From Nitrospirae bacterium CG2_30_70_394 (lineage in GTDB: Bacteria > CG2-30-53-67 > CG2-30-70-394), in assembly GCA_001873295.1 (NCBI GenBank), contig MNYW01000016.1, forward strand, positions 1 to 57,573: a stretch of DNA of 57,573 nucleotides. The letters run 5' to 3'. The notes beneath the pieces are model-generated. The model was not told the origin of the DNA. It saw nothing but the letters and a program-made list of their open reading frames with translations, and made no database searches. Both the position numbers and the translations under genes were made by a program. Below are positions 23,818-50,253 of this stretch, piece after piece. The number at the start of each line of letters is the position of its first letter. The first letter of the stretch is position 1.

Positions 23818-24678
23818 ATGGTGCACAGCATGACGGGCTTCGGCCGGGGTGACGGGCGGGGTGGGGTGCAGGTGGAGCTGCGTTCGGTGAACCACCGCTA
23901 CGGCGAGGTGGTGTGCCGCCTGCCGCGCGAGCTCCTGGGGCTGGAGGAGCGACTGAAGGAGCAGGTCGGCCGGCGTCTGCGGCGGGGCCGGGTGGAGCTC
24001 TTTCTGGCGCGGCCGCTGGCGGTGGGTGGCGGTCGTTTGTGCGTCGACACGGAGGGGCTGAAGGAGGCGGTGGGTGCCCTGCGCATGGTGAAGGAGGCCG
24101 CGGAGGTTGAGGGGGAGATCGACCTTGGCTTGCTGCTGGGCTTTCGCGAGTTTTTCACCATCCAGGTGGGTTCCGTTGACGAGGAGTCGGTCTGGTTGGA
24201 GATCGAGCCCCCCCTCGCGGAGGCCATCCAACAATGGGACATGGCCCGGCGGCGCGAGGGGGCGCAGCTCGTGGTTGACCTGCGCCACCGCCTGGCCACC
24301 CTCGCCACTTTGGTGGCGGAGGTGGAGGGAGAGGCGGGTGGGGTGCGGGAGGAGCTCGGGGAGCGGGTCCGGGCGCGGGTGGCGGAACTCGGCGTCGAGG
24401 TGGAGGCGGGTCGCCTGGAGCAGGAGGTGGCGTTGCTTGCCATGCGCGCCGACATCCAGGAGGAGGTGATTCGCCTGCGCGCCCACCTTGCCACCTTCAC
24501 CGCGGCCCTGGAGGCGGATGGGCCGGTGGGGCGGCGTCTCGATTTTCTCTGTCAGGAGATGGTGCGGGAGACCAACACCATCGGCTCGAAGTCCTCGCGC
24601 CTGTCGATCACCGAGCGGGTGATGCGCCTGAAGGAGACGATTGAGCAGGTGCGCGAGCAGGTGCAAAACCTTGAGTGA
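23818..24678 (+). CDS. yicC: YicC-family stress-induced protein
   Basis: MVHSMTGFGRG N-terminus, C-terminal EMVRETNTIGSKS, SD GGAGAGGTGG. Confidence 0.85.
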   Translation: MVHSMTGFGRGDGRGGVQVELRSVNHRYGEVVCRLPRELLGLEERLKEQVGRRLRRGRVELFLARPLAVGGGRLCVDTEGLKEAVGALRMVKEAAEVEGEIDLGLLLGFREFFTIQVGSVDEESVWLEIEPPLAEAIQQWDMARRREGAQLVVDLRHRLATLATLVAEVEGEAGGVREELGERVRARVAELGVEVEAGRLEQEVALLAMRADIQEEVIRLRAHLATFTAALEADGPVGRRLDFLCQEMVRETNTIGSKSSRLSITERVMRLKETIEQVREQVQNLE

Positions 24679-24685
24679 GGTAAGG

Positions 24686-25351
24686 GTGCGCGATTCTGCT
24701 CTTGGCCCCCTCTTGGCGGTGGTCTCCGCCCCCTCCGGGGCGGGCAAGACCACGTTGTGTAACCAGCTCGTCGAGCGGCTGCCGAACCTCGCCTACACCC
24801 TCTCGCACACCACCCGCATGCCACGCCCGGGCGAGCGCGACGGCCGCGAGTACCACTTCGTCGACGAGGCGACCTTTCAGCGAATGCGCGCGGCGGGCGA
24901 CTTTCTCGAGTGGGCGGAGGTCCACGGCAACCTCTACGGCACCGCCCGGGCGAGCGTCGCCGCCCCCCTTGGCCGTGGCCAGGACGTGGTGGTGGATGTG
25001 GACATCCAAGGTGCGGCGAGCCTCCGCCTCGACCCTTCCCTCGCCCCCACCACCATCTTCGTCTTGCCACCGTCGATGGAGGTCCTCGAACAGCGCCTGC
25101 GGGGTCGTGGCCAAGACGCGCCCGAGGTGATCGCCCGGCGGCTGCACAACGCGGTGCGCGAGATTGCCGCCTGTGACGCCTTCGATTACTGGGTGGTGAA
25201 CGGGGAGCTGGAGTTTGCAAAGACCACATTGGAGGGTATCTTGCGCGTCCGCGCCGGCCGGACGGTGGACTACGCGATGCGGGATCTGGAGGCCCAGGCC
25301 CGCCCCACCACTGCGCGCCGCACCCTCATTCGTGAAACCTTCCGGGTGTGA
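24686..25351 (+). CDS. gmk: Guanylate kinase
   Basis: SAPSGAGKTTL P-loop and SHTTRMPRPGERDGREYHFV. GTG start just after the yicC stop; exact start uncertain. Confidence 0.9.
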   Translation: MRDSALGPLLAVVSAPSGAGKTTLCNQLVERLPNLAYTLSHTTRMPRPGERDGREYHFVDEATFQRMRAAGDFLEWAEVHGNLYGTARASVAAPLGRGQDVVVDVDIQGAASLRLDPSLAPTTIFVLPPSMEVLEQRLRGRGQDAPEVIARRLHNAVREIAACDAFDYWVVNGELEFAKTTLEGILRVRAGRTVDYAMRDLEAQARPTTARRTLIRETFRV

Positions 25352-25389
25352 CCCCCCCGCCCCCACGGGGGCTTCTGAGGAGAGAGAGC

Positions 25390-25932
25390 ATGGCCATTCT
25401 GGAGCCGTTGAAGATCGTCGAGAAGGGCATCGACACCAACCTCTACCGCATCTGCCACCTGGTGGTGCAGCGCGCCCGCGAGCTCCAGGGCGGGGTGCCG
25501 AACCTCATTCCCACCGACTACAAGAAGCCCACTAGCCAGGCGCTGGAGGAGATGCTCGACGGCAAGTTGTCCAGCTACACCGAGGAGGAGTGGGCCAAGG
25601 TGGATGCGCAGCGCGTCGCCGGCCAGATCCCGCCGCCCTACGAGCGGGTCGAGATGGAGGGTGGTTCGACGCCCTCCGTGGATGATCTCGGCGGCTTCAC
25701 CGGCTTTTTGAACGCGGTGAAGCGGGCGGAGCCGAAGATGGTGGGAGGTGGCGTGGCGGTGGAAGAGGTGGAAGAGGTGGTGGAAAAAGACGAGGTGGTG
25801 AGGGTGGTGAAAGAGGATCTGGCGGTCGTGGTCAAGGACAGCTACGACGAGGATGACGAGGACGACGACGAGGATGAGGACGACGAGGAGTCCGACGACG
25901 ACTTGGACGACGACGGAGAGGACGACGAGTAG
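25390..25932 (+). CDS. rpoZ: DNA-directed RNA polymerase omega subunit with a long acidic C-terminal extension
   Basis: N-terminal ~60 aa fit the RpoZ fold (NLYRICHLVVQRARELQ). Canonical gmk-rpoZ order. SD GAGGAGAGAG. The tail ends DEDDEDDDEDEDDEESDDDLDDDGEDDE. Confidence 0.8.
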   Translation: MAILEPLKIVEKGIDTNLYRICHLVVQRARELQGGVPNLIPTDYKKPTSQALEEMLDGKLSSYTEEEWAKVDAQRVAGQIPPPYERVEMEGGSTPSVDDLGGFTGFLNAVKRAEPKMVGGGVAVEEVEEVVEKDEVVRVVKEDLAVVVKDSYDEDDEDDDEDEDDEESDDDLDDDGEDDE

Positions 25933-26010
25933 GAGGGGCGCGGCCGGTGGCCGGTGGTGAGGGGTTGGCCACGGCGATGGTTCGGTTCTCTCCCCACCCC
26001 GCGGCCAGGA

Positions 26011-26178
26011 GGCTGGCGGACCTTGGCGATCGTCACGAGGAGCGGCGGGCTCGCGCTCGGACTGCGAGCCGTTCGTAGTGCGACGTGGGGCTATGGAACG
26101 AAGAATGGGGCTCGATCCGGGGGGCGATCCGCCGCCCCACCCGCCGCTCCACGGTAGAGCGGGACAACGTCCGACAGC
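26011..26178. repeat. Dispersed intergenic element, copy X1, bounded by inverted TGKCG-N5-TGKCG cores
   Basis: Left end GGCTGGCGGACCTTGGCGATCG (26011-26032). Right end GGACAACGTCCGACAGC (26162-26178) is its inverted counterpart. Interior aligns with copy X3. Confidence 0.7.
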
Positions 26179-26191
26179 TTCCTGGGGCGCG

Positions 26192-27427
26192 ATGAGCGGT
26201 GGGGTCCACCCCGAGGGCGATCCCGTTGGCGGTGGGCGGCTGGTCGGGGTTCGCTGCCTGCTGGTCGTGACCGGCTCCATCGCCGCCTACAAGGCGGTCT
26301 TCCTCCTGCGCCAGTTGCAGGGCGAGGGGGCGGTGGTGCGGGTGGCGATGAGCGCGGCGGCGACCCGCTTCGTTGCGCCCCTCACCTTCGCCTCGCTCAC
26401 CGGCGTCCCGGTGATCACCGAGGCCACGCCACCCGTCGAGGGGGAGATCCCGCACGTCGCCGGTGGCCGCGAGGCGGAGGTGGTGATCGTCTGCCCGGCC
26501 ACCGCCAACACCCTCGCCAAGCTCGCCCACGGGCTCGCCGACAACGTGGTGAGCGCGCTGCTCCTCGCCGCGCCGACCCGGTTGCTCCTCGCCCCGGCAA
26601 TGAACCCGCGCATGTGGGACCACCCGGCAACCCGGCGCAACGTGGCGCTGCTGGAGCAAGACGGCCACCGCATCGTCCCGCCTGAAGTAGGGGCGATGGC
26701 GTGCGGTGAGGTCGGGGAGGGGCGGCTGGCGGAGGGGGCGCGGATTGTCGGCGCGGTGGTGGATCTCCTTGGCGGTCTCCCGCTGGCGGGCCGCCGGCTG
26801 CTGGTCTCCGCCGGTGCCACCCGCGAGCACCTCGACGCGGTGCGCTTTCTCTCCAACCCCGCCACCGGGCGCATGGGTTTTGCCCTCGCCGCGGCGGGGC
26901 GTGAGCTGGGCGCCGAGGTGATCGTTGTTCACGGCCCCACCGAGGTGGCGCCCCCGGCGGGCGTGGCCACGGTGGGGGTGGTCAGCGCGGCGGAGATGCT
27001 CGCTGCCTTGGAGCAGTACGTGGCGGGGTGCGACCTCCTGGTGATGGCGGCGGCGGTGGGCGATCTGCGCTTCCCGCACCGCTTGCCGGGCAAGCTGCCG
27101 AAGGGCGAGCTGCCCGCCGCCTTGGCGGTCGAGGAGACCCCCGACCTCCTCGCCGCCCTTGCCGCCCACAAGCGCCCCGGCCAGCTCTTCATCGGCTTTG
27201 CCGCGGAGAGTGGCGACGTGGAGGGTCACGCCCTCGCCAAGCTGAAGCGCAAGGGGATGGACCTCGTGGTCGCCAACGACATCACCGCCCCGGGCATCGG
27301 CTTCGCCTCCCCGGACAACGCCGCCACCCTCCTCGACGGCCAGGGTGGCCGGTGGGAGTTCCCGCGCACCGACAAGCGCACCCTCGCCCGCCAGATCCTC
27401 CTCCAAGCGGCGCGCCTGCTGGGGTGA
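26192..27427 (+). CDS. coaBC: Bifunctional phosphopantothenoylcysteine decarboxylase / phosphopantothenate-cysteine ligase
   Basis: LLVVTGSIAAYK flavoprotein N-domain, PAMNPRMW, and a C-terminal DFP ligase domain (GFAAES...ANDI). Confidence 0.9.
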   Translation: MSGGVHPEGDPVGGGRLVGVRCLLVVTGSIAAYKAVFLLRQLQGEGAVVRVAMSAAATRFVAPLTFASLTGVPVITEATPPVEGEIPHVAGGREAEVVIVCPATANTLAKLAHGLADNVVSALLLAAPTRLLLAPAMNPRMWDHPATRRNVALLEQDGHRIVPPEVGAMACGEVGEGRLAEGARIVGAVVDLLGGLPLAGRRLLVSAGATREHLDAVRFLSNPATGRMGFALAAAGRELGAEVIVVHGPTEVAPPAGVATVGVVSAAEMLAALEQYVAGCDLLVMAAAVGDLRFPHRLPGKLPKGELPAALAVEETPDLLAALAAHKRPGQLFIGFAAESGDVEGHALAKLKRKGMDLVVANDITAPGIGFASPDNAATLLDGQGGRWEFPRTDKRTLARQILLQAARLLG

Positions 27428-27458
27428 GACGGAGAAGACGCGGCGTAGGGGCTTAGGG

Positions 27459-27852
27459 GGCTGTCGAACTTTGTCGATCGGGTGGAACGGCAAGGGGGCG
27501 CGCGCCCGGGTCGGGTTGCGGGTCCCAATAAAGGCAGGCCGCAAAGAAACGCGCATCCCGCCCATGGATGCGAAGGGTGGTCCGGCGTCGGGGAGAGGAG
27601 GTCACGAAGGTCAGAGCGCACCGTCTTAGAAATCGAACCTCGGGTTCCTCCGTCTCCTCAGCCGTGCGCGCCCCGGCCAGGCGGAACCGTCGCCAACCGA
27701 TGCGGTAGGCCGCCCCCTCCCCGTCCACGATTCGTGCCCCTTCGCGTTCATTCGCGGTGTGATCTAAAAAACACCTTCCCCTTCCCTTCCCCAGCGGGAC
27801 CTCTCGCCATCCGACCGCCTGGCCCCAAGGCTTGCCGACAAGGTCCGCCAGA
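27459..27852. repeat. Dispersed intergenic element, copy X2 (largest), bounded by inverted cores
   Basis: Left end GGCTGTCGAACTTTGTCGATCG (27459-27480). Right end CGACAAGGTCCGCCAGA (27836-27852). 27452-27746 is paralogous to 48421-48640 on the minus strand. Confidence 0.75.
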
Positions 27853-27897
27853 CTCCTCGCCCCCTAGCCCGCCTTCCCCCTACAACCTTGAGGGCCC

Positions 27898-29697
27898 ATG
27901 CGCTACGCCACCATTCCGCAGATGTTCTTTTGCCGTGCGGCCCATTTCGGCGGCCAAGACTGCCTGCGCTATCGGGAGGGCGACCACTACCTGCCGATCG
28001 CGTGGAATCGCCTCGCCGAGCGGGTGGCGGCGGTCGCCGCGGGGCTCAGTGCCCACGGGGTGCGGCCCGGGGATCGGGTGGCGTTGTTGGCGGAGAACCG
28101 GCCCGAGTGGGCCCTTGCCGATCTGGCAATCCTCTCGGCCGGCGCGATCACCGTCCCCCTCTACCCGAACGCGACCGCGGAACAGGTGCGCTTCATCCTC
28201 GGCCACGCCGAGGTGTCGCTCTGTCTCTGCTCCACCGGCGAGCAGCTCGCCAAGGTGGCGGAGGCGATCGCCGGCCTGCCGCTGCTGAAGCGCGTCGTCT
28301 GCTTCGACCTCCCCGCGGCGCCGCCCCCCTTCGCCCGCCCGTTGGCGTGGCTGGAGGAGACGCTGCACCACCAGCACCTCCCGGACCTTGAGCGGTGCAC
28401 CGCCGCCAGCGGCCGCACGGCGGATGACGCGGCGTCGATCATCTACACCTCCGGGACCACCGGCGAGCCGAAGGGGGTGGTCCTTACCCACCGCAACTTC
28501 CTCGCCAACGTCGAGGCGGGGCTGGCGGCGATCCCGGTCTTCGACACGGACGTTTGCCTCTCCTTCCTCCCCCTCTCCCACGTCCTCGAACGGACCGTGG
28601 GCTTCTTCCTCATGCTCTACGCCGGCGCCACCATCGCCTACGCCCGCTCGGTCTACACGGTGGGCGAGGACCTGCTGGTGGCCCGGCCGACGATCATGGT
28701 CTCGGTGCCGCGCCTCTACGAGAAGATCTACGCGCGCATCTGGGAGGCGGTGCAGCAGTCCAACCCGGTGCGCCGGGCGATCTTTGCCGGCGGGATGCGC
28801 GTCGCCCACCGGGTGCTGGATATGCACCTCACCCATACCCCCCTGCCGCGCCATCTGGAGGTGAGCTACAGGATTCTCGAACACCTGGTGATGGAGAAGC
28901 TGCGCGAGCGGGTCGGTGGCCGACTGCGGGTGGCGATCTCCGGCGGTGCGCCGCTCAACCCCACCATCGGCCGCTTCTTCAACGCGGCGGGGATCCCGGT
29001 GTTGGAGGGGTACGGCCTCACTGAGGCGTCGCCGGTGATCGCGGTGAACCGGGTGGAGGCCAACCGCATCGGCACGGTCGGGCCGCCGTTGCCGGGGGTG
29101 GAGGTGCGGATCGCGGCCGATGGCGAGATCTTCACCCGTTCCGCCGCGGTGATGCAGGGCTACTACAAGAACCCGGAGGCGACCGCGGCGGCGATCGACT
29201 CGGATGGCTGGCTCGCCACCGGCGACATCGGCCGTCTCGATGAGGCGGGCGCGCTGGTGATCACCGATCGGAAGAAGGACCTGATCGTCACCAGCGGCGG
29301 AAAGAACATCGCGCCGCAGGAGATCGAAGGAAGGCTGGTGTTGGATCGCTTCATTGAACAGGCGGTGGTCTACGGCGACGGCCACAACTACCTCACTGCC
29401 CTGATCGTCCCGGACCTGGCGCAGCTCCGTTCCTACGTTCAGCTCAAGGCGCTACCGGTCGAGGGAGACGCGGCGATCTGCGCCCACCCGCGCGTCGTCG
29501 ACCTCCTGCGCCGGCGCATCGACCTGCAGCTCGCAGACCTCGCCCGCTACCAGCAGATCAAGCGCTTCGCGGTGCGGCCCGAGTTGCTCACCCTCGATGC
29601 CGGCGAGCTCACCCCGACCCTGAAGGTGCGCCGCGCGATCGTCTACAAGCGCTACCGCGACCTCTTCGAGGGGCTGTACGAAGAGGAGCCGGCGTAG
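27898..29697 (+). CDS. Long-chain acyl-CoA synthetase (AMP-forming, FadD-like)
   Basis: AMP-binding signature IIYTSGTTGEPKGVVLTHRN, GYGLTE, TGDIG...DRKKDLI. Confidence 0.85.
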   Translation: MRYATIPQMFFCRAAHFGGQDCLRYREGDHYLPIAWNRLAERVAAVAAGLSAHGVRPGDRVALLAENRPEWALADLAILSAGAITVPLYPNATAEQVRFILGHAEVSLCLCSTGEQLAKVAEAIAGLPLLKRVVCFDLPAAPPPFARPLAWLEETLHHQHLPDLERCTAASGRTADDAASIIYTSGTTGEPKGVVLTHRNFLANVEAGLAAIPVFDTDVCLSFLPLSHVLERTVGFFLMLYAGATIAYARSVYTVGEDLLVARPTIMVSVPRLYEKIYARIWEAVQQSNPVRRAIFAGGMRVAHRVLDMHLTHTPLPRHLEVSYRILEHLVMEKLRERVGGRLRVAISGGAPLNPTIGRFFNAAGIPVLEGYGLTEASPVIAVNRVEANRIGTVGPPLPGVEVRIAADGEIFTRSAAVMQGYYKNPEATAAAIDSDGWLATGDIGRLDEAGALVITDRKKDLIVTSGGKNIAPQEIEGRLVLDRFIEQAVVYGDGHNYLTALIVPDLAQLRSYVQLKALPVEGDAAICAHPRVVDLLRRRIDLQLADLARYQQIKRFAVRPELLTLDAGELTPTLKVRRAIVYKRYRDLFEGLYEEEPA

Positions 29698-36565: not shown

Positions 36566-38293
36566 CTACTTCCGGTTGTCGCCCTCGGCGCCGTCCTCGA
36601 GTAAGGCTGGGCCGCTGCGCAACAAGGCGAGGAGCTCGGTGCCGCTCGGGGCGGCGACCGCGGCCTGGCGGAGGGTCGCGCTGCGGAACAGACGGGCGAT
36701 GTCGGCGAGGATCTCGAGGTGGCCGCGTTCGTCGCCGCTGCCGGTTACCACGAGAAAGATGAGCTGGGCCGGCTTGCCATCGGGCGCATCGAAGTCGATC
36801 CCGCGACTGGAGACCCCCAAGGCCACCGCCGGCCGCGTGACCCCCGGCAGGCGGGCGTGGGGGGTGGCGACGCGCTCTCCGAGTCCCGTCGGCATCAGCT
36901 CTTCCCGTGCCCAGGCGGCCGCGAAGACCTCCTTCGCGTTCAGTCCGGACGCGGCTCCGAGGGCCGCGGCGAGGCGCTCGATGGCGGCGCGCCGGGTTGT
37001 GTCACCGAGGTCGGGTACAAACGCACGGGCCGGCAGGTGGTCCACCAGACGGCACGGTGTGTGGCGCCGCAGCACGTTCTTGACCAGCGAGCCGCTGGCC
37101 AACGAGGTGAGCACCGCCATGACCACCAGGGCCACGAACAGCCGCTCGTCGATCACCCGTGCCTCGAGGGCGGAGAGGCCGAGGATGATCTCCATGGCAC
37201 CGCGCGCGTTCATGCCGAATCCGACCGCCCAGGATTCGCGTGTGCCCAACCCGCCGGCGCGTGCCCCGAGGACGCTGCCGAGGATCTTGCCGGCGGAGGC
37301 GGTGATCAGCACGAACAGCACGAGGCCGAGATCGAAGTGGGCGACAAAGTCTAACTTAAGCCCGATCCCGGCGAAGAACAGCGGGGCGAAAAACGACGAG
37401 ACGAAGTCGTCGACCACCGCCATCGTACGGCGGCGCAAGTGGCGGGAGTCGCCGATCGCCACGCCAACCAGAAACGCCCCGAAGATGGCGTGCACACCAA
37501 TCCACTCGGTGAACCCCGCGGCCAACAGCGCCAGGCTCAGGGTGAAGGCGAGGACCCCCGCGGGCCACGAGGTGTGGGCGTGGATCCACGGCAGCGACCC
37601 ATCCACGACGCGCCGCACGCCCGCGATCATCACGACCGCGAAGATCAGCACGAACGCGACGGTGGCGCCGGGCGAGAAGATGCGCCCCTCGCCACCGAGC
37701 GTGCCAAGGACGATGGCGAAGATCATCCAGCCGACCAGATCCTGCAGCACGGCGGAGGCGACGATCAGCATGCCGAGGTCGGTCTGGAACACGTCCAGAT
37801 CGCGCAGCGTCCGGGCGATGACCGGCAGGGCGGAGATCGACATCGCCGTGCCGAGAAAGAGGGCGAAACCGAAGAGTGGTGTCACCGGCTGGTGGCCAAG
37901 CCAACGGGGCACTAGCCAGGCGCTGCCGAAACCCACCCCAAACGGGATGGCCATTCCGGCCACGGACACGGACAGGGCGGCCCGCCCCTGACGCCACACC
38001 GAGCCGAGATCGACCTCCAGACCCGCCATCAGCAGAAAGAGCGCGGCGGCCAGAACCGATAGCCCTTCGCGGACGTTGGCGACCGGCCCGCTGAGGGGAA
38101 AGATGGCGTGGCCGACGGCGGGGAAGATCGCGCCCAGACAGGTGGGGCCGAGGACGATCCCCGCGACGATCTCGCCCACGATCGTGGGTTGTCCCAGATG
38201 GCGCGCGACCTCGCCGAACAGGCGCGCGAGGACGAGCAGGGTGCCCACGGCAAAGAACATCATCGAGATGTCGAGCGCGTGGAGGGAGCCCAT
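36566..38293 (-). CDS. Cation:proton antiporter (CPA2/Kef-type) fused to a C-terminal PTS EIIA(Ntr/Fru)-type domain
   Basis: Na_H_exchanger TM core (GQPTIVGEIVAGIVLGP...). The C-terminal ~150 aa carry a PTS_EIIA_2-like region (MPTGLGERVATPHARL...AQLIFLVVTG). Confidence 0.85.
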   Translation of the reverse strand: MGSLHALDISMMFFAVGTLLVLARLFGEVARHLGQPTIVGEIVAGIVLGPTCLGAIFPAVGHAIFPLSGPVANVREGLSVLAAALFLLMAGLEVDLGSVWRQGRAALSVSVAGMAIPFGVGFGSAWLVPRWLGHQPVTPLFGFALFLGTAMSISALPVIARTLRDLDVFQTDLGMLIVASAVLQDLVGWMIFAIVLGTLGGEGRIFSPGATVAFVLIFAVVMIAGVRRVVDGSLPWIHAHTSWPAGVLAFTLSLALLAAGFTEWIGVHAIFGAFLVGVAIGDSRHLRRRTMAVVDDFVSSFFAPLFFAGIGLKLDFVAHFDLGLVLFVLITASAGKILGSVLGARAGGLGTRESWAVGFGMNARGAMEIILGLSALEARVIDERLFVALVVMAVLTSLASGSLVKNVLRRHTPCRLVDHLPARAFVPDLGDTTRRAAIERLAAALGAASGLNAKEVFAAAWAREELMPTGLGERVATPHARLPGVTRPAVALGVSSRGIDFDAPDGKPAQLIFLVVTGSGDERGHLEILADIARLFRSATLRQAAVAAPSGTELLALLRSGPALLEDGAEGDNRK

Positions 38294-38362
38294 GGTGGTT
38301 CCGAAGGTCGTGAGGGGTTGCGACGGTACGGTCGTCCATGACCGGTCGTGGCAGACCAAGAG

Positions 38363-38570
38363 TTTGTCGGACTTTGTCGATCGTGGCGAGAAGCAGCGGG
38401 CTCGAGTCCGGATCGACCCGTGCGTAGAGCCCGTGGGGCTCGTGCGACGAAGAACGTGATACGAGTCCGGGCCCGCGCGTCCTGCCCCACGAGTCCTGCC
38501 CCACGAGTCCTGCCCCACGAGTCCTGCCATGGTTCCGCTCGGCTCAGGAGATCGGGACAGAGTCCGCCCC
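38363..38570. repeat. Dispersed intergenic element, copy X3
   Basis: Left end TTTGTCGGACTTTGTCGATCG (38363-38383). Right end GGGACAGAGTCCGCCCC (38554-38570), inverted. Interior aligns with X1 and contains the 14-bp tandem repeat. Confidence 0.7.
38479..38528. repeat. Tandem repeat, 14-bp unit GTCCTGCCCCACGA x 3.6
   Basis: Three perfect units (38479-38492, 38493-38506, 38507-38520) plus a partial fourth. Related CGAGTCCGG motifs occur at about 38402 and 38461. Confidence 0.9.
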
Positions 38571-38964
38571 CTCCTCGTCTGCGCAGCACGGCGCAGTAGA
38601 GAGAATGGGCCGGGCGCTTAGGATCTTCCCGGCCGCGTCCCCGCCCGCACCGGCGGTCCACCGCGGCCAGGAAGCAGTGGGCGCGGCGCCGGGGGCCAAG
38701 GTCATGGGCTGGCGGCCTGAGCCGTCGATCGCGCATCCGGCCGGCCGCGGCCGGCGTGGGGGAGCAGCGGACGGGCTGACCGATCCACCCGGGTGGCGCG
38801 CCGGCGCGGCCATTCACCATGGTGGCGACCGGCTGGGCCCGGCGCGGGGCTGGTGGATTCACCCGTAAACGGGCGCATCTGGCCGGCCGTGGCTGGCGAC
38901 GCGGGGCGGTCGCTCACGCTAGAGCGGCGTAAGAGTCGCCGTGCGGTAACGCGACTCCTGCCGA

Positions 38965-39178
38965 GGTCACCCCTGCGCGCGCGGAGGGCAGGGGGAGGCG
39001 TGCGCCGCGCGTACCGGTAGCCCCGGAAGGTCACCCCTGCGCGCGCGGAGGGCAGGCTCGCTCAGCAACAGGACTACACCCCGCCCCCAGGTCACCCCTG
39101 CGCGCGCGGAGGGCAGGGGACAAAGCGGGCGCGGGGATGTTCCGTCATGCGGTCACCCCTGCGCGCGCGGAGGGCAGG
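38965..39178. CRISPR. Orphan mini-CRISPR array: 4 identical 28-bp repeats, 3 spacers (36, 33, 33 bp)
   Basis: GGTCACCCCTGCGCGCGCGGAGGGCAGG at 38965, 39029, 39090 and 39151. Periods are 64, 61 and 61 bp with unrelated spacers. The repeat has an internal hairpin CCCTGCG-CGCG-CGGAGGG. No cas genes anywhere in the 57.6-kb window (about 39 kb on one side of the array, 18 kb on the other). Confidence 0.6.
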
Positions 39179-39289
39179 GGGAGGCGTGCGCCGCGCCGCG
39201 CTTCGAGGTCCTTGCGTGCACCACCCGTGGGCGGTCGCCGCGCCCTGGGTGGTGGCTCCGCCCTGCCTCGCTCCAGCCGGGCCGCGAGG

Positions 39290-46888: not shown

Positions 46889-47245
46889 CTATCCCCGTCG
46901 CCGTACCAGCCGCAGGACGCCGAAGACGAGGGCGACGCCGAGGGTGGCGGAGAGGAGGTAGCCCGCTACCGGTCCGACGCCCGGGGCGGTGTAGTCGGCG
47001 AGGGGGGCGGGGAGGTGGGCGGCGGTGCGGATCCCCGCCGGGACGAAGCCGACCATCCGCTGGAACTCTGCGACCTCCCATTCACCCCACGCCGCGCCAC
47101 CGGCGAGTAGCCCCACCGGGGTCAGGGCCAGGGCAACCTCGAGGAGGAGGGTGAGGGGGTGGAGACGGCGCCGGGGGTGGAAGGGGCGGTGGTCCGCGTC
47201 GTCCAACCGGACGGGAGCGGCAGGGTCGTGGCGCATACCTTTCAT
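46889..47245 (-). CDS. PDGLE-domain / CbiN-like cobalt transport accessory protein
   Basis: 118 aa with two TM segments flanking AWGEWE...GYL. 4-nt overlap with the cbiM stop. Confidence 0.55.
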   Translation of the reverse strand: MKGMRHDPAAPVRLDDADHRPFHPRRRLHPLTLLLEVALALTPVGLLAGGAAWGEWEVAEFQRMVGFVPAGIRTAAHLPAPLADYTAPGVGPVAGYLLSATLGVALVFGVLRLVRRRG

Positions 47246-47907
47246 GGGGTGGGACCCGTGGCTTCGGCGGTGGCGGTGCGGCGCACCAGGGCGATGACCG
47301 CGGCGGTGTACGCCCCTTCGGCGACGCCGAAGAGCAGGGCGTGGGCGCCGACGATCGCCGGTACGGTCACCGCCAGGCCGAGGGGAAAGAAGAGGGGCTG
47401 GCCGCCCGCATCATGGGCGAGGGCGGGCTGGATTCCCAAGGCGCACGCGGTCACCGCGGCAGCAACCACTGCCGAGCCCCAGCCCGCGATGAAGGTGGCG
47501 ACATGGGTGGGGAGCCGGTGGTGGGTGGCGCGGTCAAGGAGGGCGGCGGTGAAGGCGGCGGCGAACCCCATGGCGAGGGTGTTCACCGGGAAGGTGGTGA
47601 TGCCGCCGTCGCCGAAGAGCAGCGCCTGGATCAGGAGGACCAGCCCCATGGCGCAGCTCGCCGCCCACGGCCCGAAGAGGAGCGCCAACGTCGCCGTCCC
47701 CACCGCGTGGCCGGTGGTGCCGCCGGGGAGGGGGATGTTGATCATCTGGACCACGAAGGCCAGCCCGGTGAGGGCGGAGAGGGTGGGGAGGGTCTCGTCG
47801 TCGAGGGTCGCCCGCAGCCGCCGCCCGGCGCGTACCAGCAGCGGCAGCACCAGCGCGTAGGCGGGCAGGTAGGTCTGCGGCGATAGGTAGCCGTCGGGGA
47901 TGTGCAT
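47242..47907 (-). CDS. cbiM: Cobalt/nickel ECF transporter substrate-capture component CbiM
   Basis: Hallmark N-terminus MHIPDGYLS, the motif GGTTGHAVG, and about 6 TM helices. Confidence 0.9.
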   Translation of the reverse strand: MHIPDGYLSPQTYLPAYALVLPLLVRAGRRLRATLDDETLPTLSALTGLAFVVQMINIPLPGGTTGHAVGTATLALLFGPWAASCAMGLVLLIQALLFGDGGITTFPVNTLAMGFAAAFTAALLDRATHHRLPTHVATFIAGWGSAVVAAAVTACALGIQPALAHDAGGQPLFFPLGLAVTVPAIVGAHALLFGVAEGAYTAAVIALVRRTATAEATGPTP

Positions 47908-48033
47908 GGGTGCGACTATACCCCGAGCCCCACCCGCGGTTGGACCGGTGCGTGGGGTGGCGCGCCGCCTTGTGGTCAGCGCGCCCGATGGGGAAGAGTC
48001 CCGCCTGGTTCTAACCCCCTCCCCGGAGTCCCC

Positions 48034-48372
48034 ATGAAGGTCGCCTATATCTTCTCCACCCAGGGCCACACCGTCTCCTACAAGCTCGCCCGGATGATCC
48101 TGCCGCAGCTCGAAACGGGGAGCCACGGCGTCGAGGTGGTGGGAATGTTTTTCTTCGAGGACAACAACTACGTCCTTGCCAAGGGTGACCCGATCGGCGA
48201 GCGGCTCGCGGCGGTGGCGCGGGCGCAGGGGATCCTGCTCATGGGGTGCGACCAGTGTTGTGACGAGCGCGACCTCAGCGGCCACCTGGTCGATGGCGCC
48301 ACCATCGGCTGCTTCCCCAACCTCTACGCCGCCCTCGCTGGTAATCCGCCGGATCAGGTGATCACCCTGTAG
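48034..48372 (+). CDS. DsrE/DsrF (YchN)-like family protein
   Basis: 112 aa. MKVAYIFST... Rossmann-like start and the Cys motif GCDQCC. Assignment is tentative. Confidence 0.45.
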   Translation: MKVAYIFSTQGHTVSYKLARMILPQLETGSHGVEVVGMFFFEDNNYVLAKGDPIGERLAAVARAQGILLMGCDQCCDERDLSGHLVDGATIGCFPNLYAALAGNPPDQVITL

Positions 48373-48420
48373 GCGGCGGTCGCCTCTGGACGCGCCTGCG
48401 GGGCGGCAAAGAGAGGCCGC

Positions 48421-48640
48421 GAAGGGGCGCGAATCGTGCACGGGGAGGGCGCGGTCAACGCGCTTGGATGGGCGATGGCGCCGCCGAAGGCGGGTTGCAC
48501 CGCGGCGGCGACGGTGAACCACCCGGCGCGTTCATGGGTGTCGGCGCGTTCCTTTGCGGCGACCTTTGTCCGCCCCGCACCCTCGTTTTGGCGCGCCCCC
48601 ACTTGCCGTTCCACCTGCTCGCCAAAGTCCGACAGGCCCC
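48421..48640 (-). repeat. Dispersed intergenic element, copy X4 (paralogue of X2)
   Basis: The minus-strand reading begins CTAGGGGCCTGTCGGACTTTGGCGAGCAGGTGGAACGGCAAG and ends CCCTCCCCGTGCACGATTCGCGCCCCTTCGCG. Both terminal blocks are about 85-88% identical to 27452-27503 and 27705-27746. Confidence 0.7.
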
Positions 48641-48741
48641 TAGAAAAAGAGCGTGGCTCGCCGCCAAGGTCCAACCCCCCCTTCGGTGGCGCCGAGCGCG
48701 GCGGGAGGGGTGGGCCGCACCCTTCCCGTCGATCCTTCACG

Positions 48742-48960: not shown

Positions 48961-49989
48961 TCAGCCGCACAAATCGTGGATGAGGGCCTCGAGGGTGAGG
49001 CGGTCGTCGAGGTGGTTGCCCTTGAGTTCGAGGTCGGTCTGGAGGAGGCGGGCGTGGGCGGCGACCAGCTCCGCCTCGGTGAAGCGGGTGGCGCGCTGGA
49101 AGAGCTGGCCGGCGCGGTTGCCGTACAGGCCAAGCTCCTTGGCGAGCGCCGGCCGCGGCCGGCCGCGGTCGAGACCGGCGCGGGCGCGCAGGAGCTGGCG
49201 GAGCTGCCAGGCGATGAGCCCGACCAGGCGAATCGGCGGCTCGCCGGAGGTGAGGAGGTCGTGGAGGGTGGTGAGGGCGCGGGGGCGGTCGCGGGCGGCG
49301 AGGTGGCCGACGAAGGCCCAGGCGTCGGGCAAAGCCGCGGCGGCGATCGCCTCGGCCGTCGCCATCTCCACGGTTCCCCCCTCCTCCACCTCCAAAGCGA
49401 GGCGTTGCACCTCGGTCTCCAGGCGCGATAGGTCGGTCCCCAACAGCTCCACCAGGAGGTTGGCAACCCCGCGCCCCAGGCGGACATTGGCCTCGCGCGC
49501 CATGGTCGTGCACCAGGCGATCGCGTCGGGGCGCTCCACCGGGTTGCATTCCAGGCAGAGGGCGCACCCCTTCAGCGCCTTGGTGAGGCGGGCGCGACCG
49601 TCGAGTTTGTCCGCCACCAGGGCGAGGGTGGTGGTGGGGTTGGGGTCCTCTAGGTAGGCGAAGAGCTCATGCGCGGGGTCGGTGGCGGAGCCATCGTGCT
49701 CCTCGTCGTTCGCCTCGTTGGGCTGTCGTGGTAGCCACCGCTCCACCGCCTCCACCACCACCACCAGGCGTGGGGCGAGCATGGGCAGCGACTGGCAGTG
49801 GGCCACCACCTCCGCCGGGCGCACCTCGGCGGCGTCGAGGCGCAGGTAGGCGAGGTCGTCCTGCCCCGCCAACCCCTCACGCAGCCGCTCCACCGCCCGC
49901 CAGGCGAGGCGGCGCTCCGTACCCAGCAGGAGGAGTACCGGCGGCTCTTTGGCCGTTGGGTCGCGGAGCCAGGTGATCACCGAGTCCAT
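48961..49989 (-). CDS. holA: DNA polymerase III delta subunit
   Basis: 342 aa. The N-terminal motif PVLLLLGTE and the overall length and architecture fit HolA. Sequence conservation is weak, as usual for this family. Confidence 0.7.
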   Translation of the reverse strand: MDSVITWLRDPTAKEPPVLLLLGTERRLAWRAVERLREGLAGQDDLAYLRLDAAEVRPAEVVAHCQSLPMLAPRLVVVVEAVERWLPRQPNEANDEEHDGSATDPAHELFAYLEDPNPTTTLALVADKLDGRARLTKALKGCALCLECNPVERPDAIAWCTTMAREANVRLGRGVANLLVELLGTDLSRLETEVQRLALEVEEGGTVEMATAEAIAAAALPDAWAFVGHLAARDRPRALTTLHDLLTSGEPPIRLVGLIAWQLRQLLRARAGLDRGRPRPALAKELGLYGNRAGQLFQRATRFTEAELVAAHARLLQTDLELKGNHLDDRLTLEALIHDLCG

Positions 49990-50253
49990 GGGAAGATTGT
50001 GCCCGCCGCCTAACCGCGGTGTCACCGCCAACGGGGCGCCGGTCGCCAGCAAGGAGGCGGGCGGGGCGCATTGCCAGAGGGGATCGAACGGTCACGCCGC
50101 CCACCCGCGATGACCACGGCCGGTCGCGGAGGGGCGGTCGTCGTGGGTCGAGGCCGGCTGGATCGGTTGCGAGGCGCTCCCTTGAACCGGTCGAGATGCA
50201 ACGAGTCTTGGTCCGGAGCTCCCCCAGGGTGCTCATGGTACGGGCCAAGGGAG

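Follow-up and report, generated by a model that had tools for sequence, protein, structure and literature searches.

What are the short sequence cores that recur in the intergenic spacers of this contig, and why do several of them face one another across a non-coding segment? The window, by which we mean the whole stretch of 57,573 nucleotides analysed here, is ~70% G+C and comes from an uncultured lineage. An earlier note, made from the sequence of the window, described a core of two TGKCG half-sites (TGKCG-N5-TGKCG) at seven intergenic positions. It proposed that the core might represent the terminal inverted repeats of a MITE/REP-type element, a regulator binding site or an outward-facing promoter. 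The analysis reported here indicates, with a probability that we place at about 0.9, that the cores are terminal inverted repeats (TIRs) of non-autonomous elements (MITEs), and that these ends are those of IS1182-family insertion sequences.

The pattern TGKCG-N5-TGKCG has eight matches in the window compared with 1.5 ± 1.2 in dinucleotide-preserving shuffles (0 of 100 shuffles at eight), and TGKCGGACNTTGKCG, allowing up to two mismatches, has 19 compared with 2.6 ± 1.8. By the shuffle comparison proposed when the core was first described, its frequency is thus above expectation. Conservation outward from the 15-mer core originally defined reaches ~20 nt (AGGAGNCTGKCGGACYTTGKC). A 20-nt family consensus, GGAGTCTGTCGGACTTTGGC, was recovered from copies elsewhere and then used to re-score the entire 57.5-kb window. 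Six copies lie at two to four mismatches from this consensus, while no further 20-mer in the window is found at six or fewer, the next ones having at least seven. A seventh core, at 38554-38570, has suffered a 1-nt deletion and about six substitutions; although badly decayed it is real, and is recognisable because the adjoining CCGATCT of the right end of the Type 1 elements described below is retained. The core positions reported in the earlier note are therefore borne out, as six strong copies and one decayed one, and all are indeed intergenic on a GC3-based gene map supplemented with Pfam calls. Other matches to the 15-mer (11182, 35745, 38067, 30089 and others) display 7-10 mismatches over 20 nt and are taken as chance. 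The possible second solo end listed in Table 1 is by itself indistinguishable from chance, and is included for its location only.

Table 1. Positions of the repeat elements, their ends and the neighbouring genes in the window.
Feature	Position	Strand	Context or basis
gmk	24641-25351		GC3 map and Pfam
rpoZ	25348-25932		GC3 map and Pfam
Putative Type 1 MITE copy, 175 bp	26008-26182	+	Between rpoZ and coaBC; left end 26008-26027 = GGAGGCTGGCGGACCTTGGC, right end 26163-26182
coaBC	26192-27427		GC3 map and Pfam
Type 2 element, 401 bp, non-coding	27456-27856	+	Between coaBC and the AMP-binding ligase; ends 27456-27475 and 27837-27856
AMP-binding acyl-CoA ligase	27898-29697		GC3 map and Pfam
CPA2/EIIA antiporter	36566-38293	-	GC3 map and Pfam
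Putative decayed Type 1 MITE copy, 218 bp	38359-38576	+	Upstream of the CPA2/EIIA antiporter gene; left end 38359-38378, degenerate right end ~38557-38576
Small ORF, 113 aa	48033-48372	+	Read by eye
Partial Type 2 copy, one end only	48418-48640	-	End 48621-48640, preceded by CTA on its own strand; 2 mismatches to consensus
Possible second solo end	48663-48682	-	AGGGGGGGTTGGACCTTGGC; 7/20 mismatches to GGAGTCTGTCGGACTTTGGC, 2 to the 15-mer; 42 nt from the preceding end
holA	48961-50052	-	GC3 map and Pfam
Strong core copies, outer ends	26008, 26182, 27456, 27856, 38359, 48640	+, -, +, -, +, -	2-4 mismatches to GGAGTCTGTCGGACTTTGGC

At three loci an inverted core closes a unit (26008/26182, 27456/27856 and 38359/38576). 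The segments previously described as bracketed measure 175, 401 and 218 bp, and the distances given from the cores to the downstream start codons (13, 45 and about 70 nt) were also correct. Behind their common ends the elements fall into two interior families, Type 1 (26008 and 38359) and Type 2 (27456 and, on the minus strand, 48640). Intact Type 1 is ~163 bp and a near-complete palindrome, and Type 2 is 401 bp. The Type 1 copy between rpoZ and coaBC has three to four mismatches to the consensus at each end, has lost its flanking TA (it is now preceded by CCA and followed by TGG) and displays 75-82% identity to 162-164-bp units of the metagenome-assembled genome (MAG) CAZRGD01. The decayed copy at 38359 can be aligned with other Type 1 copies and harbours a 14-nt tandem array (ACGAGTCCTGCCCC x4.9, 38461-38528; Tandem Repeats Finder). 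With respect to Type 2, the left end of the complete copy is preceded by TA at 27454-27455 and both its ends have three to four mismatches to the consensus. Its interior is shared with about 48418-48642 on the opposite strand in two blocks of 74% and 81% identity (blastn), the two copies differing by a 65-nt indel. The partial copy is flanked by the 3' ends of holA and the small plus-strand ORF, forms inverted repeat pairs with 27454-27506 and 27705-27746 at 87-88% identity, and has no recognisable right end. The flanking TA is kept at two of the six window ends and lost at four, three of which are now CCA or TGG. These changes, CTA/TAG to CCA/TGG, are located at 26005-26007, 26183-26185 and 38356-38358 (CTAGG to CCAGG) and, speculatively, fit GC pressure or very-short-patch-type repair. 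No Rfam family matched anywhere in the window at gathering thresholds, the element loci at permissive E-values returned chance-level eukaryotic families only, and a tRNA/tmRNA scan of the window found nothing.

The locus around coaBC provides a comparison with related genomes. CoaBC homologues at 73-83% identity, of which that of JAJRSX01 is 83% identical to the window's protein, led to four contigs (L117, L118, L120 and L121) with the gene order yicC-gmk-rpoZ-coaBC. The rpoZ-coaBC spacer is 90, 42, 57 and 36 nt in these four relatives compared with 260 nt in the window. A TIR-like end is absent from all four loci. As the spacers of these relatives are so much shorter and lack such an end, the Type 1 copy at 26008 is, to judge from this comparison, an insertion in the window's lineage. 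At the Type 2 locus (27456), likewise, no TIR-like end was found in the relatives. Within the species the picture is one of stability. In six metagenome strains the copies at 26008 and 27456 are 100% identical to those of the window, and at 38359 the sole variation is in the count of the 14-nt tandem units, by one unit either way; all three element loci covered by strain contigs (26008, 27456 and 38359) are fixed in the six strains. All four window copies look old and are probably immobile, since their ends are substituted, most of the flanking TAs are lost, one copy has undergone tandem expansion, another is missing an end, and three of the four are fixed in every strain sampled.

Better preserved copies of Type 1 occur in related genomes. 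A scan of a genome collection containing one genome per species, using the pattern YTGKCGRACYTTGKCGATCG, returned at least 110 loci. Among the matches listed nearly all were singletons in unrelated taxa, at about the chance level for this pattern, while at least 15 of the loci listed were in a single MAG, CAZRGD01 ('uncultured Nitrospirota bacterium'). Its coding DNA is ~70% identical to that of the window and its Type 1 elements 71-83%, values indicating that it is a relative of, and a different organism from, the source of the window. CAZRGD01 contains at least nine complete Type 1 copies of 162-164 bp, which are sharply bounded by inverted ends, GGAGTCTGTCGGACTTTGGC and GGAGCCTGTCGGACTTTGGC, near-perfect over 20 nt. 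Further copies, of 151 and 163 bp, respectively, are present in the relative JAJRSX01 (L032) and in a metagenome locus (L141). Among the 22 ends that bound complete copies in the relatives, 20 have the dinucleotide TA directly outside, usually as cTA before an initial GGAG and TAg after a terminal CTCC, and abutting copies have one TA in common (L094 4250/4253, L043 1904/1907 and L113 ~1831). The flanking TAs, together with the single TA between abutting copies, argue for duplication of TA or CTAG. It should be emphasized that this evidence for duplication comes from the relatives and not from the window. The rpoZ-coaBC spacers of L117, L118, L120 and L121 are too diverged for the filled and empty junctions to be aligned base by base.

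A number of the CAZRGD01 copies are at contig ends, as would be given by repeats that break assemblies, and solo ends with truncated interiors are also present, as are different interiors between the same ends (L007/L043) and a 76-bp internally deleted Type 1 derivative (L099). Their location is intergenic, and either orientation relative to the flanking genes is seen. Three copies coincide precisely with the TAG that terminates the gene upstream, and insertion there regenerates the stop (L090 2581, L094 4088 and L034 6483); in a genome of 68-70% GC, stop codons may be where CTAG targets are concentrated. It was considered whether a transposase accompanies the solo ends at L034, L089 and L111, and this was rejected, as the adjacent ORFs are metabolic or transport genes (chorismate synthase, PLP decarboxylase, a pyruvate:ferredoxin oxidoreductase subunit and a Na+/H+ antiporter). 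Type 2 was not found among the collected relative and metagenome loci; with two copies, both in this genome, its putative status as a mobile family derives solely from its ends.

The family to which the ends belong is revealed by longer elements. When metagenome contigs were scanned for a left end with any base but G after it, a condition that excludes the Type 1 left end, 21 loci were identified in organisms of 37-74% GC. In L124, L137 and L142 the inverted 20-mer, with TA outside, bounds full-length units of 1589, 1535 and 1571 bp, respectively, each with a single ORF (445-460 aa) whose start lies immediately internal to the end. Against the NCBIfam model for IS1182 family transposases, NF033551 (cut-off 270 bits), these ORFs score 373, 309 and 336, and they also match Pfam DUF772, DDE_Tnp_1 and DDE_Tnp_1_6. 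The three transposases are mutually only 40-44% identical, and the elements encoding them are in unrelated organisms of 42-62% GC outside the window's lineage, although, as they were found by requiring the exact 20-mer, the apparent breadth of exact-end conservation is biased by that search. Annotated plasmids contain IS1182-family genes at 42-48% identity (tblastn). On three of these plasmids, Pseudomonas aeruginosa pPAG5, Aromatoleum aromaticum EbN1 plasmid 2 (annotated 'IS1182-like element ISAzo2 family') and an Acetobacter ascendens plasmid, annotated IS1182/ISAzo2-type genes are flanked by inverted copies of TA followed by GCAGCCTGTCGG(A/G), continuing with CTT in two of the three records (pPAG5 and EbN1 plasmid 2). 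The earlier statement that the core matched no known RNA or repeat family is thus superseded, as its ends match those of the IS1182 family. IS630/Tc1-type parentage, which the TA/CTAG target had suggested, was dropped in view of the IS1182-family identity of the full-length elements. A literature search with the end sequence found no paper with a match, and one around IS630, MITEs and CTAG found nothing specific.

The same end also bounds short elements. MITE-sized pairs, 43-465 bp apart and with unrelated interiors, are present in organisms of 40-74% GC. At L127 1535-1577 (~43 bp) and at L130 from ~1985 there is little beyond two back-to-back ends, and these minimal elements suggest that mobilisation may require nothing beyond the 20-nt end. 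A tblastn search with three IS1182 transposases detected no IS1182 transposase gene in the window or in the collected loci of the clade. The likely mechanism is trans-mobilisation: a DDE transposase of the IS1182 family, encoded elsewhere, would bind the ~20-nt ends (GGAGTCTGTCGGACTTTGGC), excise the short element and insert it at (C)TA(G) sites, leaving TA, or CTAG, at both flanks. Mobilisation of the window copies by such a transposase, and the identity of the flanking TA as a target duplication, not the element's own last bases, are deductions from sequence comparison, and any effect on neighbouring genes would be incidental. ISPse1, an IS1182-family element captured experimentally, generated a 4-bp duplication (PMC3281130, Table 2), and a passage in PMC5678879, citing Siguier et al., states that palindromes serve as targets for some IS1182 members. 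CTAG is itself such a palindrome, of 4 bp; duplications of 2 and 4 bp are indistinguishable here because both yield the same sequence.

The window and its relatives thus provide paired inverted ends, small non-coding units, dispersed copies (four loci in 57.5 kb) and presence and absence between species, and other organisms provide autonomous elements with the same ends; these are attributes by which a MITE is recognized. Of the original suggestion of a MITE/REP-type element, the MITE part stands, in view of the multi-copy TA-flanked units, the element-free relatives and the IS1182 elements with the same ends, while the REP part does not.

It could be argued that the Type 1 hairpin is a functional structured RNA, such as a stabiliser, processing site or attenuator, and that its fold is selected, a proposal that is compatible with a MITE origin. 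The RNAalifold consensus of Type 1 is one hairpin of 59 pairs in which 95.8% of the alignment cells are paired. Thirteen pairs have changed on both sides, compared with 4.2 ± 1.5 in shuffles (0 of 500) and four or fewer in slid controls, but the Type 1 copies are related by descent as sub-families, in one of which TTTGGC has become TTATGC in both ends, and the covariation counts are thereby inflated. The copy at 26008, which is inside the probable rpoZ-coaBC transcript, folds into a single long hairpin of -97.4 kcal/mol (z = -4.3), whereas the folds of the other window copies do not surpass those of shuffled sequences (z = -1.2 for 38359, and likewise for 27456). Furthermore, Type 1 orientation relative to the flanking genes is mixed, the element has no Rfam match, and the same pattern of paired changes would arise through gene conversion between palindrome arms, or if transposition required the ends to match. 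A closing stem formed in RNA by the paired inverted cores was also considered and rejected for the window, where the G/T positions of the pairs are without compensation; compensation is seen in the wider Type 1 alignment though not in the window core pairs. RNA roles have been proposed for ERIC and Correia elements, and stem-loop targeting has been reported for IS1272. On balance a function in RNA is improbable. The broader proposition that the hairpin is under selection, either because this branch of IS1182 transposases acts on a hairpin or cruciform or because it has become an RNA element in host transcripts, we consider unlikely. If it were true, the near-invariant 20-nt end, common to transposases of only 40-44% identity and to MITEs of 43-465 bp in organisms of 40-74% GC, would point to an unusually constrained, structure-dependent transposition system spreading across phyla.

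A second possibility is that a host transcription factor, perhaps a response regulator of the OmpR/PhoB type, recognizes the core as its operator through two TGKCG half-sites, or that the core is an outward promoter for coaBC, the acyl-CoA ligase and the antiporter. The outward-read copies do lie upstream of the three start codons at the distances given above, the TGKCG pentamers are spaced at 10 nt, or one helical turn, and the G/T positions vary independently between paired copies, which a protein site could tolerate. The same core, however, forms both ends of transposase-encoding elements in unrelated organisms. Across these parent insertion sequences CTGTCGG(A/G) and little more is conserved, with CTGTCGGACTTT in most. 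The second TGKCG half-site is variable, TTTGGC being followed by C, A or T, and in the annotated plasmid elements, which diverge past GTCGG(A/G), it is without conservation. In CAZRGD01 the copies occur in either orientation, and are found after genes as well as at stop codons. The relatives keep the gene order around coaBC without any such site. A scan for sigma-70-like promoters found none in or beside the elements, and 13 nt before coaBC is too short for a promoter. The regulator-site and promoter alternatives that the earlier note had left standing are consequently largely refuted, the unconserved half-site, the mixed orientation, the lack of a sigma-70-like promoter and the presence of the same ends on transposons making them highly improbable. 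A sigma-54 or sigma-70 promoter reading of the core was rejected, as its spacing and G/T positions misfit and the consensus scan gave no promoter.

The interpretation of the elements as IS1182-derived MITEs has consequences for the annotation of their neighbours, whose positions were taken from the GC3-based map and Pfam calls, which also place mgtE, uvrB, fmt and cbiM in the window. The deposited CoaBC protein (P0001, 444 aa) begins 33 codons upstream of ATG 26192, inside the element (26093-26191). This start is doubtful because the called CoaBC starts in the relatives L117 and L120 align with ATG 26192, and it probably reflects misannotation brought about by the insertion. Near the partial Type 2 copy, the long minus-strand ORF 47242-48522 is not a single gene: its CbiM domain begins near 47906 (MHIPDGYL), and the part upstream of CbiM (47907 onward) overlaps the separate plus-strand ORF 48033-48372. 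Other repeats in the window were also noted. A 53-nt direct repeat (48725-48777/48796-48848; 85% identical, with a 36-nt exact core) is downstream of holA beside the partial Type 2 copy, and a 28-nt direct repeat (31644-31671/31705-31732; 96% identical) is in the 260-nt spacer upstream of uvrB. At 38965-39196 four exact copies of the 28-nt repeat GGTCACCCCTGCGCGCGCGGAGGGCAGG are separated by unique spacers of 33-36 nt, and strains L001 and L003 have one additional unit and a different first spacer. From its sequence this array looks like a small orphan CRISPR; no cas gene was seen near it.

The value of these findings is mostly for annotation. The MITE identity accounts for the excess length of spacers that separate housekeeping genes of this uncultured lineage, flags the deposited coaBC protein as probably mis-started within an insertion, and cautions against taking the core for a regulatory motif in motif-discovery screens. 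The 20-nt signature could also be used to find IS1182-derived MITEs in metagenomes. An end that is conserved across very different hosts, and a compensated hairpin, would be of interest to transposon specialists, though neither is surprising.

Short dispersed repeats of several kinds are known in bacterial genomes. REP/BIME sequences consist of ~20-40-nt units, without a TIR-bounded body or target duplication, and are associated with RAYT (IS200/IS605-like) HUH/Y1 transposases. The window elements resemble them as short palindromic repeats dispersed in intergenic regions, but differ in their length of 160-400 bp, 20-nt inverted ends, TA flanks in relatives and DDE-type parent. Membership of REP/BIME was thus rejected on unit size, inverted ends, TA flanks and the DDE transposases. 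Correia/NEMIS elements of Neisseria, RUP of Streptococcus pneumoniae and ERIC/IRU of enterobacteria are ~100-200 bp, have TIRs, are intergenic, are present in many copies and form hairpins. Correia and RUP duplicate TA. Sub-families that differ by internal deletions are a further feature in common with the elements described here. RUP is linked to IS630, while we know of no parent for Correia. The window elements are like Correia, RUP and ERIC in size, TIRs, intergenic siting, dispersed copies and hairpin, but their sequences and parent family differ, and the window copies are relics in an uncultured high-GC lineage as opposed to a recent burst. Operators of OmpR/PhoB and CpxR comprise two similar pentamers about one helical turn apart. 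In contrast, in the elements described here the second pentamer is unconserved, and the sites are always the ends of discrete insertions with no fixed position or orientation relative to promoters.

The IS1182 family, in its ISAzo2-like branch together with ISPse1 and IS1272, has a terminal sequence in common with the window ends. The IS1182 elements described here have TA (CTAG) outside their ends, which fits the 4-bp duplication of ISPse1 (PMC3281130). The window elements differ from these insertion sequences in being 175-401 bp, without a transposase gene and with interiors that are unrelated beyond the ends, and no autonomous copy was seen in the lineage. The elements are an ordinary kind of mobile-DNA relic, and these MITEs can now be assigned a parent family.
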